NCBI GenBank assembly: GCA_030018805.1
Contig: JASEHL010000001.1
Span: 1-57,521, forward strand
Source: Patescibacteria group bacterium
GTDB lineage: Bacteria > Patescibacteriota > Minisyncoccia > Moranbacterales > UBA11712
Length of the DNA: 57,521 nucleotides
Direction of reading: 5' to 3'
Shown here: positions 12,949-56,105 of the stretch, piece by piece
How the letters are laid out: the number at the start of each line of letters is the position of its first letter
Position numbering within the stretch: position 1 is the first letter of the stretch
The notes under the pieces: model-generated
Told to the model about the DNA's origin: nothing
Database searches by the model: none
What the model saw: the letters and a program-made list of their open reading frames with translations, nothing else
Position numbers and translations under genes: made by a program

Positions 12949-13921
12949 ATTTGGATTCCCGCCTATAGCGGGATCACACACCGCCGGACGAACGGTTTTC
13001 CCGTATCCTGGCGGTTTCCAACGCTGGATCAAACTGTTTTTTGAAATTATGTTTTTTGCCGAACTTTCGCATTTTGTTGCGAAGCCGTTGGATTCTTTCA
13101 AAGCCCTTGTCGGTCAGATGTTCCTTTTCCCGCATCGCGAGAACAATCTTTTTGAAAAGTTTGTAAACATCCGCCTTCTTGGCTTCGAGAGGATGGCGGT
13201 CAAGGAATGGGAAAAGGATTTCCGTCAAGTCTCGCGTGCTGGTCACTTTGAGTTTGGCATGCGGATGCCATCCATATCGTTCATACGAACAATCATAGAT
13301 TCTTCCGCAGCCGATCGTCGCGACTATGCGCTCGAGAATTTTTCGGTCATCATCCCGAAGTTCAATTTCAAACTCCGGCTTTATTTCCACTCCTCTTTTG
13401 AGAGTCTTGTGCCGGTTAATACTAACCGAGAAAGACCCTTCGCCATCAATGAATCCGGAAACATAATATGGATTCAGTTTTTTGCATTGGATTTGCTCCT
13501 TCCCAAACGGATCTTTCAAACGCGGATTGCGCTCGAAAGGCTTTCGCTTGGTACTATGAGCTCGGCTGACTTCTTGCATGGCTTGAATCAAAAATTACTC
13601 TTTGATTTTACTTTATAATTCTCGTGGTTAGTATACCACAGAATTAAAAGACCATACAAGATCTCCCTTGGTCACTCAATAAACATTTTGACGCCGTCTC
13701 GATAAACCGATACATATATATCTTATTTGAAGATGGCTTCCTCATGTACTCCCAGAGTCGCCAAATATATATGTATTTGTTGTTTATTCAAGCTGGCATC
13801 TGCTACTTTCACCCTTCAGTCCGATCCTCACGGAGTCGAACCTGTGATTTCGCTTCATGGATTCTTCAATATCCTTGGTCGGATTCACACCGACTAGCTT
13901 ATTGGGCTGCAAGGCACCCGA
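12949..13921 (-). other. about 0.97-kb intron-like insertion in the 16S rRNA 1390-1400 region
   Basis: It separates ...GGTCTTGTAC (13930..13922) from ACCGCCCGTCACACC (12948..). It contains a homing endonuclease ORF. The exact splice boundaries are not resolved. Confidence 0.7.
12974..13591 (-). CDS. LAGLIDADG homing endonuclease (single-motif type)
   Basis: 205 aa. YVSGFIDGEGSFSVSI is a LAGLIDADG motif. The ORF lies inside the rRNA insertion. Confidence 0.85.
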   Translation of the reverse strand: MIQAMQEVSRAHSTKRKPFERNPRLKDPFGKEQIQCKKLNPYYVSGFIDGEGSFSVSINRHKTLKRGVEIKPEFEIELRDDDRKILERIVATIGCGRIYDCSYERYGWHPHAKLKVTSTRDLTEILFPFLDRHPLEAKKADVYKLFKKIVLAMREKEHLTDKGFERIQRLRNKMRKFGKKHNFKKQFDPALETARIRENRSSGGV

Positions 13922-13983
13922 GTACAAGACCCGAGAACGTATTCACCGGGACATGGCTGATTCCCGATTACTAGCGATTCCGG

Positions 13984-14034
<51 letters not shown>

Positions 14035-14152
14035 GGATTGGCTCCGCCTCGCGGCTTGGCTACCCATTGTACCGGCCATTGTAGCATGCGTGTCGCCCAG
14101 GGCGTCAGAGGGCCATGCTGATTTGACGTCATCCCCGCCTTCCTCCCAGCCC

Positions 14153-14329
14153 GATGCGCACTCGCTGCGCGAGTGCTAAATTAAAAACTTAAAATTAAAA
14201 GTGAAAAATTATGGAGTCTCGCTGCGCTCGACAATTTACTTTATACATAAATAGTCATGCGCGAAGCGCATACCAGAATTTTTACTTTTTCATTTTTACT
14301 TTTTAACTTAGCGCGCGTAGCGCGCATTG
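14153..14329 (-). other. ORF-less intervening sequence in a 16S hairpin loop (E. coli about 1130-1140)
   Basis: The native stem cccagccc (14145-14152) pairs with gggctggg (about 14330-14337) and is extended by an insert. The insert arms aaattaaaaacttaaaattaaaagtgaaaaatt and aatttttactttttcatttttactttttaactta are complementary and have a 7-nt period. Confidence 0.6.
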
Positions 14330-14408
14330 GGCTGGGCAGTCTCGAGTGACACTTGTAACACTCGACAGGGGTTGCGCTCGTTTCCCGACTTAACGGAACA
14401 CCTCACGG

Positions 14409-14439
<31 letters not shown>

Positions 14440-15005
14440 CCAGCACCCTCGAAGGCTATCATGTTTCCATGATATGCAGCTGGATTTCAAGCCCTGGTGA
14501 GGTTCCTCGCTTATTGACGAATTGAACCGCGTGCTCCACCGCTTGTGCGGGTCCCCGTCTATTCCTTTGAGTTTTAAGCTTGCGCTCGTACTTCCCAGGC
14601 GGCCTGCTTAACGCGTTAGCTACGGTCCTGAAAGGGTCGATACTTCCAAGACCTAGCAGGCAACGTTTAGGGCGTGGACTACCGGGGTATCTAATCCCGT
14701 TCGCTACCCACGCTTTCGTGTCTCAGCGTCAGACAAAGCCCAGTTCACTGCCTTCGCCTTTGGCGTTCCATATGATATCAACGCATTTCACTGCTACACC
14801 ATATGTTCCATGAACCTCTACTTGTCTCGAGTGATGACGTTTCAGATGCGGCTCCAACGTTGAGCGCTGGAATTTGACATCTGACTATCATCGCCGCCTA
14901 CACACGCTTTACGCCCAATAAATCCGGATAACGCTTGAGGTCTCTGTATTACCGCTGCTGCTGGCACAGAGTTAGCAACCTCTTATTCCTACCGTACCGT
15001 CAGAA

Positions 15006-15437
15006 GTGAGATGTGAGAAGTTAGATGTGAGATTTTATTTCCATCTTTCCCTTAACCTGTATAATTGTTTGCCGATAATATCGTATTCTTCTATTAATTT
15101 ATCGGCAATATTTTTTTCTCCAAATTCAGCATTAACTGAATCTTCTATATGACTCATAACTTCATTACATGAACCTAGAGATCGAGTTAGATACAGCTTA
15201 AATTCCGCTATAGATCTTCCGTATCCTTCTGCAATATTCGAATGAATCGAATTTGCAGCTCTGCACATTTGATCTCTTAGATGTTTTGCTTCAAAGGGAA
15301 ATGTTTTTGTATAATTTACAATCTGTGGATACAATTTTTTTGATCTTTGGTAAACATCAAGATCTTTAAAACTTTTAATCATATCCAAATTATACAACAA
15401 TTATATCTCACTTCCCACCTCTCAACTCTCACCTCTT
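15006..15437 (-). other. intervening sequence in the 16S V3 helix carrying a four-helix-bundle protein gene
   Basis: The arms gtgagat/gtgagaa/gttagat/gtgagat (15006-15033) and atctcac/ttcccac/ctctcaa/ctctcac (15405-15435) are inverted 7-nt tandem repeats. The flanks are normal 16S sequence (..ACCAGAAGAAG and CTTCTGACGGTAC..). Confidence 0.65.
15035..15400 (-). CDS. four-helix-bundle protein (23S rRNA-intervening-sequence protein / Avd-like family)
   Basis: 121 aa. FKDLDVYQRS...FPFEAKHLRDQMCRAANSIHSNIAEGYGRS...EFKLYLTRSLGSCNEV fits the family pattern. It is in the same orientation as the rRNA. Confidence 0.8.
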   Translation of the reverse strand: MLYNLDMIKSFKDLDVYQRSKKLYPQIVNYTKTFPFEAKHLRDQMCRAANSIHSNIAEGYGRSIAEFKLYLTRSLGSCNEVMSHIEDSVNAEFGEKNIADKLIEEYDIIGKQLYRLRERWK

Positions 15438-15519
15438 CTTCTGGTAGAAAAGAAGTTTACAACCCGAAGGCCTTCATCCTTCACGCGGCGTCGCTCGGTC
15501 AGGCTTTCGCCCATTGCCG

Positions 15520-15550
<31 letters not shown>

Positions 15551-15610
15551 TTGGGCAGTGTCTCAGTCCCAATGTTGGGGATCATGCTCTCACATCCCCT
15601 ACCCGTCATA

Positions 15611-15648
<38 letters not shown>

Positions 15649-15809
15649 ACACAGGCCGCTCCTCAAGCGATAAATCTTTACTCCGAAGAGAACTATCTCG
15701 CATTATTCCCCCTTTCGAGGGATTATTCGAGACTCAAGGGTACGTTCCTATGCATTACTAACCCGTTTGCCGTGCCGCCAAAGGCGGCACGCGACTTGCA
15801 TGCCTTATC

Positions 15810-15849
<40 letters not shown>

Positions 15850-15989
15850 AATAAGAATTATTTCGATAAAATAAATTACCAAAATAATTTTGAGAACCCG
15901 GAATTTTTTGATAGAAATTCCGGCGAACTCTATAAAAGTAACTGATTTTGAATAGATCGTTTGGCACTTCCCCGACGTTACGTCGGGGC

Positions 15990-16017: not shown

Positions 16018-16076
16018 TTACCCTGTTAAATTGCGCCAGAGGCGCACCTCGCGAAGCGAGGATTTAACAGGGTGAA
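16018..16076. repeat. family-A palindromic element, copy 1 (intergenic, rRNA leader)
   Basis: The outer arms are ttaccctgttaaat and atttaacagggtgaa. They enclose two inner hairpins, tgcgcc-aga-ggcgca and cctcgc-gaa-gcgagg. Confidence 0.85.
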
Positions 16077-16465: not shown

Positions 16466-16535
16466 CACCTTGCCCTGTTAAATTCTGGCGTAGCCAGACC
16501 TCGCGAAGCGAGGATTTAACAGGGTGAATTCACCC
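16466..16535. repeat. family-A palindromic element, copy 2
   Basis: Same outer arms. Inner hairpin 1 is changed by compensatory substitutions (tctggc-gta-gccaga). Confidence 0.85.
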
Positions 16536-19782: not shown

Positions 19783-19841
19783 TTACCCTGTTAAATTCCG
19801 CCTCTGGCGGACCTCGCAAAGAAAGGATTTAACAGGGTGAA
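19783..19841. repeat. family-A palindromic element, copy 3 (between murI and the deacylase gene)
   Basis: ttaccctgttaaat-tccgcctctggcgga-cctcgcaaagaaagg-atttaacagggtgaa. Confidence 0.85.
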
Positions 19842-26272: not shown

Positions 26273-26938
26273 CTATTCTAACCACAGCTTTTCATCTTGC
26301 TTTCTTTCGCGAAAATCCGCGATATTTTCGGCTGCATATTCAAAATATTCTTGAGAATTTTTAAATTGGCTTAAAATAACTTCTTTTTTGCACAATTGAT
26401 TGCTTTCTTTTCCTAAATATTCGGGAAAGCCGCACCATCTATAATTTCTGGCAGGATGTATTCCGTGTATCTCGCTGTTGCAATTCACATACACCGACAT
26501 GCGAAGAAAATTATTTGGTCCGATGCGCATTGATTTGAATCTTCCTTGAAAAAGCACGCCGCTTCTTTGATTCTTTTCATTGAAATATTTTGTGTAACTG
26601 TTTCCTAACCTTTGCATAAATATCTTTATCCCATTATTATCTGCAGTTTGTTTCAAAACGAAATGATAATGATTAGAATTGAGGCAATATGCAATAATTT
26701 CAACTAAGGGATTCCTTTGTTTAACATTCGCCGCCAGAAAATTTTGCACCGATTCTCTGGGATGATTCTCTTTGTAATCCCGCCACCTAATCATTAAACC
26801 GTCTTTTTTGTCATTTAGTAAATCCATAGCCAATAAAAATCTCTCAAAATATCTGTCGCTTAAAAACACATCCCGTTTATCAACGCCGCGATTGTATATG
26901 TGATAGTATTCATTTTCCACAAGAGGATTCTTACGCAT
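26273..26938 (-). CDS. REP-associated tyrosine transposase (IS200/IS605 TnpA-like, HUH-Y1)
   Basis: 221 aa with EYYHIYNRGVDKRDVF, the HUH motif NSNHYHFVLKQ and NSYTKYFN...GVLFQGRFKS. Confidence 0.8.
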   Translation of the reverse strand: MRKNPLVENEYYHIYNRGVDKRDVFLSDRYFERFLLAMDLLNDKKDGLMIRWRDYKENHPRESVQNFLAANVKQRNPLVEIIAYCLNSNHYHFVLKQTADNNGIKIFMQRLGNSYTKYFNEKNQRSGVLFQGRFKSMRIGPNNFLRMSVYVNCNSEIHGIHPARNYRWCGFPEYLGKESNQLCKKEVILSQFKNSQEYFEYAAENIADFRERKQDEKLWLE

Positions 26939-42546: not shown

Positions 42547-42610
42547 TTCACTCTGTTGAATCCTCCCCCGGAGTGGGAGGTGCGCCTGCGGCGCAATTCA
42601 ACAGGGTAAA
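42547..42610. repeat. family-A palindromic element, divergent copy (after comF)
   Basis: ttcactctgttgaat-cctcccccggagtgggagg-tgcgcctgcggcgca-attcaacagggtaaa. Confidence 0.75.
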
Positions 42611-48262: not shown

Positions 48263-48820
48263 TTATGGCTTGATTGAAAACCGCCACAAATATTCCCGGC
48301 AGTATTGGGCGTAGTCAATGCCGATTCTCTGGGATTTTTTTATTTCCGAAGGTCGAACCTTCGGAATTCCTTTTTCGAGCCACAATTTTTCCCCTTTTGT
48401 TATGTCCCATTTGTTGAGTTTTCGGTCGATATGCAAAAATTTACAGAGTTTTCCGGGGCCATCCAAGTAGACGTCCGACGTCTTCGACTTTGTAGACGTC
48501 GGACGTCTACAAAGTTTCGCTCCCCTAATCAAAACCGCCGCCGGGAAATCTTTTTTCTCGGTGACGATGTTGAGGCAATGGTACATTCCATAAATCATAT
48601 AAACATAAGCGCAGCCCGGCTCTCCGTACATCACTTCTGTCCTTGGAGTTCTCCCCCGCGAAGCGTGACAAGCCAGATCGTCCTCGCCGTGATAGGCTTC
48701 GGTTTCGATGGTCATCGCCCGCCAAATTTTTCCGCGATATTCGCGCATCAAAAAACAGCCGAGAAGATCCCGGGCAACTTTCAAAGTATTTCGCCGATAG
48801 AACTTTCTATTTATGATCAT
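48263..48820 (-). CDS. 3-methyladenine DNA glycosylase (AAG/Mpg family) with two in-frame palindromic inserts
   Basis: 185 aa with TLKVARDLLGCFL, IETEAYHGEDDLACHA and AYVYMIYGMYHCLNIV. Confidence 0.85.
   Translation of the reverse strand: MIINRKFYRRNTLKVARDLLGCFLMREYRGKIWRAMTIETEAYHGEDDLACHASRGRTPRTEVMYGEPGCAYVYMIYGMYHCLNIVTEKKDFPAAVLIRGAKLCRRPTSTKSKTSDVYLDGPGKLCKFLHIDRKLNKWDITKGEKLWLEKGIPKVRPSEIKKSQRIGIDYAQYCREYLWRFSIKP
48346..48364. repeat. class-E palindrome inside the glycosylase gene
   Basis: ccgaaggtcgaaccttcgg encodes PKVRPS. It is related to the class-D REP sequence. Confidence 0.8.
48467..48510. repeat. family-B palindromic element inside the glycosylase gene
   Basis: gtagacgtccgacgtct-tcgacttt-gtagacgtcggacgtctac encodes CRRPTSTKSKTSDVY. 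Confidence 0.9.
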
Positions 48821-50021
48821 CTATTGCTTTTTTATAAACTTCCAGCATTCTTTTCGCGCAAACGGAAGAGGTGTATTTTTCCCTTGCAATCTTTCCCGCT
48901 TTTTCCCCGAAATTTTTCCGCAAATTTTCATCATCAATCAATTTCTGAACGGCATGTGAAAACTCTTCCTTATCTTCCGCGACCAAAAATCCCGTTTTTC
49001 CATCTTTGATAATATCTTTCGCGCCGGTCGCCCGCACCGCCACAATCGGCAAGCCCGAATACATCGCTTCCGTCAAAATCATTCCCTGCGTTTCCGATTT
49101 TGAAGCGTAGACGAAAACATCTCCCGCGGCATAATAATCTTTTTTTTCTTTATCAGAAACAATGCCTATAAAAATAACTTTGTCATTAAGTCCAGTCTCG
49201 GAAACTTTTTTTATTAATGAATCCTTCAAATTTCCCTCACCGCAAATCATAAATTTTACCCTGTTAAATTGCGGCAAAGTCGCACTCCGACTTTGAGTCG
49301 GGGATTTAACGGGGTGAGCATCCTCATTTTTCTGCAAAACCTCCAAAACAGCATCGACTAAAAACTCGACATTTTTTTCAGCCGTGAGTCGCGTCATCAC
49401 AAAAAGCAGGATCTCATCTTCTTTTATTTCATATTTTTTTCTCACGCTCTCCCGATCCGGATTTTCAAATTGTTCTCCCTCCACACCGGTTGGAATAGCC
49501 GTGATGTTTTCGTTCGTCGCTCCCCACTTCCGGATTATTTCAATCACTGATGGCGTGGGAGCAACCACCGCGTCGCACCGGTCGGCATAATTTCTGGCGT
49601 TTCGGATCGCCCACCAGGCGGCGAGTCTTTGTGGAACGAAAGGGACAAAATGGGCATACTGGTCATAAAGCGTGTGCCAAGTGAAAACCAACGGGATATT
49701 TTTCTTCTTTGCCCAGCGCGCCGCGGCGCTTCCCAAAAGATTCGGATGCTGCGAGTGTATGATATCCAAATCCAATTCTTTCAGGATCTTGTCAATTTTT
49801 CGCGAATACGGAATGGCGATTGGAAACTTTATTTTGATATTCGTCTCAAATGCCGGGTAGCGGAAAACACGCGGATTGGTGTCCCGATATCCTTTCCAGC
49901 GCGGAGCGAAAATATAAACCTCGTGCTCCAGCTTTTCGAATTCCTTGCGAAAACTCTCAACAGACCCCGAAACGCCATAGGGATTGGGAAGATAGTTGTT
50001 GGTGAAAATGGCGATTTTCAT
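48807..50021 (-). CDS. GT4-family glycosyltransferase with an in-frame family-A insert
   Basis: 404 aa with a GT-B layout and the C-terminal motif ETQGMILTEAMYSGLPIVA (the E-x7-E region). Confidence 0.85.
   Translation of the reverse strand: MKIAIFTNNYLPNPYGVSGSVESFRKEFEKLEHEVYIFAPRWKGYRDTNPRVFRYPAFETNIKIKFPIAIPYSRKIDKILKELDLDIIHSQHPNLLGSAAARWAKKKNIPLVFTWHTLYDQYAHFVPFVPQRLAAWWAIRNARNYADRCDAVVAPTPSVIEIIRKWGATNENITAIPTGVEGEQFENPDRESVRKKYEIKEDEILLFVMTRLTAEKNVEFLVDAVLEVLQKNEDAHPVKSPTQSRSATLPQFNRVKFMICGEGNLKDSLIKKVSETGLNDKVIFIGIVSDKEKKDYYAAGDVFVYASKSETQGMILTEAMYSGLPIVAVRATGAKDIIKDGKTGFLVAEDKEEFSHAVQKLIDDENLRKNFGEKAGKIAREKYTSSVCAKRMLEVYKKAIDDHK
49256..49318. repeat. family-A palindromic element inside the glycosyltransferase CDS
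   Basis: ttaccctgttaaat-tgcggcaaagtcgca-ctccgactttgagtcgggg-atttaacggggtgag. It is 63 bp and encodes HPVKSPTQSRSATLPQFNRVK. Confidence 0.85.
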
Positions 50022-54956: not shown

Positions 54957-56105
54957 ATGCACTATACTTGTACCATGCTTATTCTTGCCATTGAAACATC
55001 CTGCGACGAAACGGCGGTGGCTCTTGTTGAGGAAAAAAGGGGCGGTTTTTTCGTAATTGACGAATATGTTTCTTCGCAAACAAAAACCCACGCGCCATTT
55101 GGAGGAGTTGTTCCCAATCTTGCGGCCAGGGACCACTTGAAAAATCTTCCTTTGCTCCTCAAAAAAATCATCGCGAAGAACAAAATCAAGCGGAATAATA
55201 TTGATTTGATCGCCGTGACGGAAGGTCCGGGACTCATTCCGGCGCTGCTCATCGGCACGAATGCGGCGAAGGCCATTGCCTATGCCTGGAAAAAACCGCT
55301 GGTCGGCGTGCACCATATTGCGGGACATATATATGCGAACTTCATTCACCTTGTTAAATCCCCGACGTCACGTCAGGGTGCGGCTTTGCCGCAATTTAAC
55401 AGGGTAAAATTTCCTATTCTCGCTCTCATTGTTTCTGGAGGGCACACGGAGCTCATATTCATGAAAAAGCATATGGATTTCAAAATCGTCGGTCAGACTC
55501 TCGACGACGCGGCCGGCGAAGCTTTTGATAAGGTGGCTAAGATTTTGGAGCTGGGCTATCCCGGCGGACCGATAGTTTCTCGGCTGGCAGAACTTTACCA
55601 AAGTTCGACTTTTCCCTCCCAACAACGGAGTTGTCGGGATTCCTCAAAGTCGAACTTTTCGCTGCCGCGGCCCATGATCAATTCAAATAACCTCAATTTT
55701 TCCTTCTCTGGCCTGAAGACCGCCGTACTTTATACCATTCGAGACAATCCGAAAACTCTGAAAAGCAAAAAACTGACCAGCGAGCTTTGCGCCGAATTCC
55801 AGCAGGCCGCGATTGACGTGTTGGTGTCAAAAACAATTCGCGCGGCCAAAAAATATAAGCCCAAAACCATTCTTCTCGGTGGTGGTGTCTCGGCCAACAA
55901 GGAACTGCGCCGCCAGCTCGGCGAGATCATAAAAAAACAGATACCAGATACCAGATACCAGATACCAGATACAAAATACTCCCTCGACAACGCTGCCATG
56001 ATTGCCGTAGCCGGATATCACAAGTGGAAATTTTCGAAAAACAGGAAACCGTTCTATAATAACTGGAGAACATTCGAAGCGGACGCGAATCTTAAGTTGA
56101 ATTAG
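54957..56105 (+). CDS. tsaD: tRNA N6-adenosine threonylcarbamoyltransferase with three in-frame repeat inserts
   Basis: 382 aa with ILAIETSCDETAVA, VGVHHIAGH, SGGHTELI and NAAMIA. The likely start is MLILAI at 54975. Confidence 0.9.
   Translation: MHYTCTMLILAIETSCDETAVALVEEKRGGFFVIDEYVSSQTKTHAPFGGVVPNLAARDHLKNLPLLLKKIIAKNKIKRNNIDLIAVTEGPGLIPALLIGTNAAKAIAYAWKKPLVGVHHIAGHIYANFIHLVKSPTSRQGAALPQFNRVKFPILALIVSGGHTELIFMKKHMDFKIVGQTLDDAAGEAFDKVAKILELGYPGGPIVSRLAELYQSSTFPSQQRSCRDSSKSNFSLPRPMINSNNLNFSFSGLKTAVLYTIRDNPKTLKSKKLTSELCAEFQQAAIDVLVSKTIRAAKKYKPKTILLGGGVSANKELRRQLGEIIKKQIPDTRYQIPDTKYSLDNAAMIAVAGYHKWKFSKNRKPFYNNWRTFEADANLKLN
55347..55408. repeat. family-A palindromic element inside tsaD
   Basis: caccttgttaaat-ccccgacgtcacgtcaggg-tgcggctttgccgca-atttaacagggtaaa encodes LVKSPTSRQGAALPQFNRVK. 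Confidence 0.85.
55600..55658. repeat. palindromic insert (family G) inside tsaD
   Basis: The arms are aaagttcgacttt (55600-55612) and aaagtcgaacttt (55646-55658). It encodes SSTFPSQQRSCRDSSKSN. Confidence 0.8.
55939..55980. repeat. (ataccag)n heptad tandem array inside tsaD
   Basis: cagataccagataccagataccagataccagatac encodes IPDTRYQIPDTKY. Confidence 0.9.

Follow-up and report, generated by a model that had tools for sequence, protein, structure and literature searches.

The window analysed in the present study, a stretch of 57,521 nucleotides (contig JASEHL010000001.1, positions 1–57,521, assembly GCA_030018805.1), derives from an ultra-small, Moranbacteria-like bacterium of the Patescibacteria and contains, within two protein-coding genes on opposite strands, copies of a short palindromic DNA element whose single strand is predicted to fold into a Y. 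The first host gene, located at 48807–50021 on the minus strand, encodes a family-4 glycosyltransferase (GT4) of 404 amino acids with matches to Pfam PF00534 (Glycos_transf_1, 9.6e-39) and PF13439 (Glyco_transf_4, 4.5e-31), and the structure of PDB 2jjm aligns to the protein on either side of the insert. Its element lies at 49257–49316 (minus), comprising a core at 49260–49313 and the terminal triplets CAC and GTA, and is read in frame as HPVKSPTQSRSATLPQFNRV, which corresponds to residues 236–255 in the context ...DA-HPVKSPTQSRSATLPQFNRV-KF.... The second host gene, tsaD (54957–56105, plus; Pfam PF00814, 3.4e-83), encodes tRNA N6-adenosine threonylcarbamoyltransferase of 382 amino acids, an orthologue of which is present in 20 of 21 relatives. 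A second copy of the same subfamily is located there at 55347–55406 (plus; core 55350–55403) and is read in frame as HLVKSPTSRQGAALPQFNRV in the context ...FI-HLVKSPTSRQGAALPQFNRV-KF..., a few residues past the HxxxH motif (HHIAGH), the metal-binding motif of TsaD/Kae1. Both copies give the peptide H[PL]VKSPT...PQFNRV, and the pattern GTTAAATCCCCGAC-N-GCCGCAATTTAAC has exactly two matches in the window, at 49263–49310 (minus) and 55353–55400 (plus), each on the coding strand of its host, versus none in 100 shuffles. A first-pass annotation of this DNA had proposed that the two elements share orientation and frame relative to the mRNA and encode the same peptide, with which the sequence, the strands and the translations all agree; the length of 63 bp it gave to the GT4 element should be replaced by a net insertion of 60 nt (20 amino acids), based on comparison with 17 orthologues. 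The common orientation of the two window copies alone is a 1-in-2 event, however, and gains weight only from a census of the whole family.

The element consists of terminal inverted repeats of 13–16 nt, (RTT)CACCCYGTTAAAT...ATTTAACRGGGTR(AAN), around two variable hairpins. The near-invariant arms, CCYGTTAAAT...ATTTAACRGG, which are extended outward by (RTT)CAC and GTR(AAN), are common to all copies in this genome, and ten core base pairs per arm hardly vary. The arms enclose two short GC-rich hairpins whose sequence differs from copy to copy while the pairing stays. The hairpin closed by CC...GG directly adjoins the left arm and the other is usually offset by one base on each side, and this unequal spacing confers an intrinsic polarity on every copy; polarity with AAATCC on the 5′ side is called forward here. 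The cores are 48–74 nt long and the elements 54–80 bp.

Both window copies are predicted to fold as a three-way junction on either strand, with z-scores of −3.9 and −5.1 for the two strands of the GT4 copy and −6.2 and −6.4 for those of the tsaD copy. The pairing within the hairpins is backed by covariation: among 40 copies of one length class, seven of ten hairpin pairs vary on both sides, each with two to four standard pair types, and the covariation score of 0.325 compares with 0.110 in shuffles (0 of 500 reach 0.325) and with at most 0.094 when the partners are slid. The copies used were picked for having at least four of five pairs per hairpin, a choice that inflates the percentage paired but not the number of pair types. 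In most copies, the outer stem has a C·A mismatch as its third pair on one strand and G·T on the other (42 and 17 copies versus 8 that are perfect). A scan of the window with Rfam 15 at the gathering score matched no family to the element and found only 16S rRNA, four tRNAs and a group II intron domain. An intrinsic terminator was also considered and rejected, since the A-run lies 3′ of the hairpin and the T-run 5′ on either strand, which is the wrong arrangement.

Comparison with orthologues indicates that the copies are insertions. Exactly 20 amino acids are absent at the GT4 site in all 17 orthologues from the same family or order, which show the empty-site context ...KN(D)--(R)(T/A/V)KFMICGEG..., and the net insertion is thus 60 nt, that is, the 54-nt core plus 6 nt. 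Likewise, the 20 amino acids of an intragenic copy in a UbiA-family gene on contig 6 of this genome are absent from 13 of 13 orthologues, and 19–21 amino acids in a second GT4 gene on contig 17 are absent from all 11 alignable orthologues. No clean empty site was found for the tsaD copy, because the surrounding loop varies in length and sequence in all 18 orthologues. This TsaD loop past HxxxH (window 55320–55420, orthologues L138–L155) ranges from ~8 to ~35 residues among the relatives, and several of its versions are of low complexity and rich in K/N/Q/S; they are possibly leftovers of other repeat insertions. The insertion sites are A/T-rich and resemble RTT|AAN, and the net insert equals the core plus 6 nt. 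The two ends are mirror images, so the precise limits of the insert inside the terminal hexamers are ambiguous, and parses of 3+3, 6+0 and 0+6 nt suit different empty sites. At offsets of 0–8, no direct repeat rose clearly over the A/T-rich background as a target duplication would.

For the census, copies from this genome, its relatives and two database scans were pooled and duplicates were removed, which gave 236 copies; the matches listed are a non-exhaustive sample. Deep inside open reading frames (ORFs) lie 78 copies, 76 of them with assignable polarity, and these represent 65 independent sites after homologous hosts with the same insertion point were merged. Of the 65 host proteins tested, 55 were backed by Pfam in both gene and called strand; among them are RpoC, DNA polymerase I, DnaE, PheT, a Leu/Val-type tRNA synthetase, GatB, TGT, MnmA and KsgA, as well as NusB, ribosomal protein L18, Mfd, CTP synthase, BipA, peptide deformylase and the gamma subunit of ATP synthase. 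The core length is a multiple of three at 63 of the 65 intragenic sites versus 68 of 137 intergenic copies, and all intragenic copies are free of stops in the host frame. By frame, 55 of the 65 sites are read in forward phase 0 (F0) and three in its mirror (R0), while four forward (F2) and three reverse (R2) sites use the frame that reads TLLN, and none uses F1 or R1. An independent replicate scan with the CCCG...CGGG variant alone yielded 28 forward copies versus one, and all four deep intragenic copies of this genome are forward. Around 55 forward intragenic copies, the preceding codon is RTT in 45 and the following codon AAN in 50, and the terminal triplets are CAC or TAC in 41 and GTA or GTG in 52.

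Outside genes the bias vanishes. Intergenic copies between co-directional genes point the same way as the genes in 36 cases and the opposite way in 43, and those with core lengths divisible by three do so in 16 versus 23 cases; the difference in orientation between intragenic and intergenic copies is highly significant (Fisher p=3e-10). This absence of bias between genes argues for a filter that acts after insertion rather than for insertion directed to one strand.

Part of such a filter is evident from the element itself. The arms shut four of the six frames by the stops in TGT TAA A and ATT TAA C on either strand and in GGG TAA/TGA at the outer end, which leaves one frame per strand, continuous only with a core length that is a multiple of three; both remaining frames read PVK...FNRV owing to the palindromic arms. 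The GT4 copy is open in two frames, namely, the frame in use and its mirror on the opposite strand, while the tsaD copy is open in the used frame alone, its mirror frame containing TGA. Of 55 intergenic copies whose length fits, 46 have an open forward frame and 22 an open mirror frame, the mirror frame being shut largely by a subfamily that gives AAA TAA TTT when flipped. From stops alone, a forward share of 68% would be expected, but 95% is observed (p=8e-7), and intragenic copies that are open both ways round are also strongly biased (31 forward versus 3, p=8e-7). Stop codons therefore account for part of the orientation bias, and the observed bias is larger. The first-pass annotation had supposed that only one of the six readings is tolerated and had suggested a census of orientation and frame together with a six-frame check. 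Neither random orientation and frame nor equal openness of the other frames was found, and with F0 at 55 of 65 sites the supposition is essentially right, although not absolute.

The composition of the encoded peptide differs between the readings. The surviving frame encodes (H/Y)PVKS-x(8-14)-[QLEK]FN(R/G)V, a peptide rich in Ser, Ala, Gly, Lys, Glu and Pro, and the translated inner segments contain 12% hydrophobic residues, 1% F/W/Y/C and 81% small or polar residues. The same frame of intergenic copies would give 21% hydrophobic residues and 5% F/W/Y/C (p=7.5e-5), and the flipped reading 30–32% hydrophobic residues and 15–18% F/W/Y/C along with more Arg (p=4e-11). At the DNA level, the purine share of the two hairpin loops on the coding strand is 0.75 and 0.65 in genes versus 0.58 and 0.56 between genes. 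Two of the three sites that survive in the mirror frame encode benign peptides, YPLKADPSEAG and SVSGRPPLAG, and the third lies in a 106-aa ORF that has no Pfam match and may not be a gene. We read these differences as the result of selection on the translated loop. An asymmetry of mRNA structure was rejected as the cause of the bias, because the predicted fold energies of the two strands are less than 1 kcal/mol apart, the differences of 0.4–0.9 kcal/mol being not significant.

The predicted position of the peptide in the protein is consistent with such selection. The AlphaFold2 model of the GT4 protein, built with 19 orthologues, has a mean predicted local distance difference test score (pLDDT) of 88.7 and a predicted template modelling score of 0.85, and its sole segment with pLDDT below 50 is the insert, residues 235–251, between a helix (218–231) and a strand (255–260). 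Compared with PDB 2jjm, ~25 residues of the GT4 protein at the insert correspond to a turn of four residues. The insert is thus predicted to form an unstructured surface loop.

From these observations, we consider that the element is a small, non-autonomous and probably mobile DNA palindrome and that the common orientation and frame of its intragenic copies probably reflect survivorship at the protein level, rather than a property of the insertion step. A copy that lands in a gene would be transcribed and translated with the gene. By the census, it persists only if its core length is a multiple of three, if the insertion falls on a codon boundary, and if the 5′ end on the coding strand is the one at which the CC...GG hairpin adjoins the repeat. 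Four of the six frames would be lost to stops in the terminal repeats, and the mirror frame would meet a stop in about half of the copies and otherwise yield peptides rich in Arg, Phe, Cys and Trp. The one surviving reading would add a harmless hydrophilic peptide and hence be tolerated.

Another possibility, which we regard as unlikely, is that the insertion step itself is strand-specific, as with a single-strand HUH/Y1 transposase of the IS200/IS605 type acting on the lagging-strand template or on the non-transcribed strand, such that in genes co-oriented with replication all intragenic copies would point one way; the first-pass annotation had likewise suggested that insertion is orientation-specific with respect to transcription or replication. 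The asymmetry of the element, seen as C·A or G·T at the third pair of the outer stem in most copies, the absence of a target duplication and the ten matches to Y1_Tnp (PF01797) in the genome, one of which is in the window, would suit such a mechanism. It does not, however, predict the unbiased intergenic copies between co-directional genes described above, and the polarity of the inner hairpins, which sets the peptide, predicts the coding strand better than that of the outer termini does (21:3 versus 19:5 in the typed subset). An asymmetric target was also rejected as the cause, given that the genes of this genome contain in-phase RTT|AAN and NTT|AAY codon pairs at similar frequency (398 versus 352), and the suggestion of oriented insertion finds no backing in these counts. 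In addition, the Y1 genes are not adjacent to elements and co-occur with them only weakly over 41 relatives (15 of 18 genomes with the element versus 14 of 23 without). It is still less plausible, and in our estimation highly improbable, that the element is not translated at all, being removed from the transcript or bypassed by the ribosome, and that the match between the two window copies is coincidental. The agreement of two copies would indeed arise by chance half of the time, and the element folds stably, but constraints on length, stops and composition imply that the stretch is read and would be absent if it were not: cores divisible by three at nearly all intragenic sites versus about half of the intergenic copies, no stop in any host frame, and a peptide composition skewed relative to intergenic copies.

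About as unlikely as strand-specific insertion is a benefit to the host from the peptide or from the folded element, which might serve, for instance, as a domesticated loop, as a binding site or as a regulatory structure, with the orientation kept by that function. In favor of this idea, the element in the L18 gene is 95–98% identical among three species, compared with 68–78% for the flanking coding DNA, and different family members occupy the same codon of orthologous genes in distant genomes (GT4, TsaE, ATP synthase gamma, DNA polymerase I, CTP synthase and an EF-G-like GTPase). The sequence of the inner peptide is not conserved, however, the host proteins are unrelated, the loop is predicted to be disordered, and close relatives all manage without the element; strong conservation can likewise result if a hot spot was hit recently or if the pairing is under selection. 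Several considerations weigh against the survivorship filter as well. That the element is, at some sites, more conserved than its host gene is not what a neutral passenger would predict, and neither a transposase nor a target duplication was found for it. Its mobility is suggested by empty orthologous sites and dispersal, and the translation of its copies by the constraints on length, frame and composition; the tolerability of the peptide is deduced from composition only, and an effect at the mRNA level, through structure or codon usage, might contribute. The scans demanded exact terminal repeats and would have missed decayed copies, and the gene calls were crude (greedy longest ORFs), though Pfam supports most of them; the sequences come from metagenome-assembled genomes (MAGs).

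A loose search over the whole assembly (1,016,527 bases in 82 contigs, 44.6% G+C) revealed at least 24 family copies in this 1.02-Mb genome, six of which are in the window. Besides the two intragenic copies, three intergenic members with 50-nt cores lie on the minus strand at 16022–16071, beside the 16S rRNA gene, at 16474–16523 and at 19787–19836; a 50-nt core belongs to the length class of 2 mod 3, which is closed in every frame if the flank is GTRA. The sixth member, with the terminal repeat variant TCTGTTGAAT/ATTCAACAGG and a 54-nt core at 42552–42605 (plus), is located at the 3′ end of an open frame of 131 codons, and the frame stops two codons later. The neighboring 16S rRNA gene (13891–15855, minus) spans 1965 nt versus 1533 positions of the model and thus carries insertions, and an RNA match to group II intron D1-D4 lies just beside it at 13496–13609 (minus). 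Copies exist in 18 of 41 relatives, and exact-pattern scans with one genome per species gave at least 118 stretches in one scan and 64 in the other, with matches in many classes of Patescibacteria and in MAGs of Omnitrophota, Desulfobacterota, Bacteroidota, Bdellovibrionales, Udaeobacter, Deferribacteraceae and Gammaproteobacteria. In one case, two family members abut head to tail in a single 486-aa ORF without a Pfam match (L189:714–761 and 768–815), both in the forward frame. A reverse-oriented copy lies 19 codons into an ORF after pyrH (G000 contig 16, 1181–1234; L179), which would read HPVKLSAESGNLARRGFNRVN if the first ATG is the start, while the true start may be downstream.

No autonomous parent emerged from this genome, where widely spaced pairs of ends all proved to be ends of neighboring elements, or from ~200 loci, in which this limited search for a parent found five widely spaced pairs of unpaired ends whose interiors were not checked for a gene. 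Among the ten PF01797 matches in the genome, one is a canonical gene of 149 amino acids (contig 76), and most others are weaker matches in open frames of about 220–260 amino acids, including that in the window at 26483–26710 (minus). None of the ten adjoins an element, and the relatives carry up to seven each. A transposase of the Y1 type, or of the related type associated with repetitive extragenic palindromic sequences (RAYT), is not favored as the mobilizer, as its homologues are present but unlinked to the element and weakly co-distributed with it.

Pairs of copies at the same site of orthologous genes offer another view of the dynamics. An orthologous GT4 gene (61% identity) of a more distant Moranbacteria MAG has a different family member (L044:1980–2033) at the same codon as the element at window 49260–49313, and because none of the 17 closer relatives has one there, this suggests a recurrent insertion hot spot. 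The ATP synthase gamma genes of two Omnitrophota MAGs (L071:2557–2610 and L190:2882–2935) share the insertion point and have flanks that are 94–96% identical, with inner hairpins of different sequence and in opposite order, and both copies are read in the TLLN frame; here the element looks as if it had been replaced or inverted in place. The conserved L18 copies mentioned above are 57-nt elements (L180:4284, L198:2014 and L231:4509). A CTP synthase pair (L232:935 and L242:7157) and a DNA polymerase I pair (L181:252 and L235:6730) each share a site and one hairpin that is identical or nearly so, while the other hairpin differs; in the CTP synthase pair, one hairpin is identical and the other appears replaced. 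These pairs suggest that hairpins are exchanged as units, and the same-site cases together are suggestive of insertion at hot spots, of replacement in place or of selection on the pairing. A bolder and rather doubtful idea is that the elements are actively kept and renewed at fixed sites by structure-guided homing or gene conversion that recognizes the invariant stem, with whole elements or single hairpins being swapped. If this is true, the elements would supply essential proteins of many phyla with rapidly changing surface loops, and an unrecognized enzyme that acts on folded three-way-junction DNA would be implied.

Among known systems, integron attC sites have the order R″(RYYYAAC)...R′(GTTRRRY) and occur in cassette arrays with intI nearby. 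The boxes GTTAAAT and ATTTAAC of the element fit GTTRRRY and RYYYAAC, and a conserved structure around a variable center is common to both. An attC site was nevertheless rejected, because the box order is reversed (5′-GTTRRRY...RYYYAAC-3′ on both strands) and the copies are single and dispersed, many of them intragenic; IntI was not searched for. The palindrome-associated transposable elements (PATE) derived from IS200/IS605 have subterminal hairpins without terminal inverted repeats, cause no duplication and insert in a strand-specific manner relative to replication. For the present element no duplication was found, its terminal inverted repeats are strong, and copies outside genes show no bias with respect to gene direction.

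Rickettsia palindromic elements, RPE-1 to RPE-10 (Ogata et al. 2000, 2002), are stem-loops of 105–150 bp that are described as restricted to Rickettsia and Wolbachia (summarized in PMC10969869 and PMC2229807). They share with the present family hairpin-forming repeats with terminal inverted repeats, locations between genes and in frame inside conserved housekeeping genes, a conserved encoded peptide that leaves the host fold compatible, and occurrence in reduced, gene-dense genomes. The Y-shaped family differs in its size of 54–80 bp, in that only the stem sequence is conserved and the two inner hairpins are interchangeable, and in its spread over many phyla. The 65 sites, the empty orthologous sites and the disordered loop are what in-frame insertion into conserved genes, with a conserved peptide at a surface-compatible position, would produce, and length and hosts place the family outside RPE-1 to RPE-10; this separation is by description, the sequences not having been aligned. 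By this analogy, the family would functionally be the RPE phenomenon without being a member of an RPE family in size, shape or host range. The bacterial miniature inverted-repeat transposable elements Correia/NEMIS, ERIC, RUP and YPAL (PMC2229807, PMC10969869) are likewise small, gene-less and dispersed and have terminal inverted repeats, which are 13–16 nt in the Y-shaped family. The latter is two to three times shorter, has an interior conserved in structure and not in sequence, and lacks a detectable target-site duplication or, within a limited search, a parent insertion sequence with the same ends. The REP and REPIN repeats have a GTAG or CGTC head on a hairpin of 20–40 nt and form inverted doublets, and the RAYT (TnpA-REP, Y1) gene is flanked by the repeats (PMC3733652). 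Short GC-rich hairpins in many copies and Y1-type transposase homologues in the same genome are common to both. The Y-shaped family, however, has no GTAG or CGTC head, its consensus ends being RTTCACCC...GGGTRAAN; its conserved part is the long outer stem and not the hairpin, and the Y1-like genes are not flanked by Y-shaped elements. A limited search of the literature on miniature inverted-repeat elements and in-frame palindromes of the Candidate Phyla Radiation and Patescibacteria found no description of the family, and one apparent literature match to the element sequence was dismissed as a primer coincidence.

To our knowledge, selfish palindromes that reside within protein-coding genes have until now been regarded as peculiar to Rickettsia. 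The present findings point to the same lifestyle in a much smaller element, in many uncultured phyla and in core genes such as those for RNA polymerase, DNA polymerase I, tRNA synthetases and ribosomal protein L18. What genes tolerate is quantified by the census as well: insert lengths that are multiples of three, a single codon phase, a single orientation and peptides of hydrophilic character. For annotation, loops of 16–23 residues of the type PVKS...FNRV should be regarded as insertions, not as features of the protein family in which they occur, and their positions provide natural maps of permissive sites for loop insertion in conserved enzymes. The family might, moreover, serve as a clean system for studying how a gene-less DNA of 60 nt moves.

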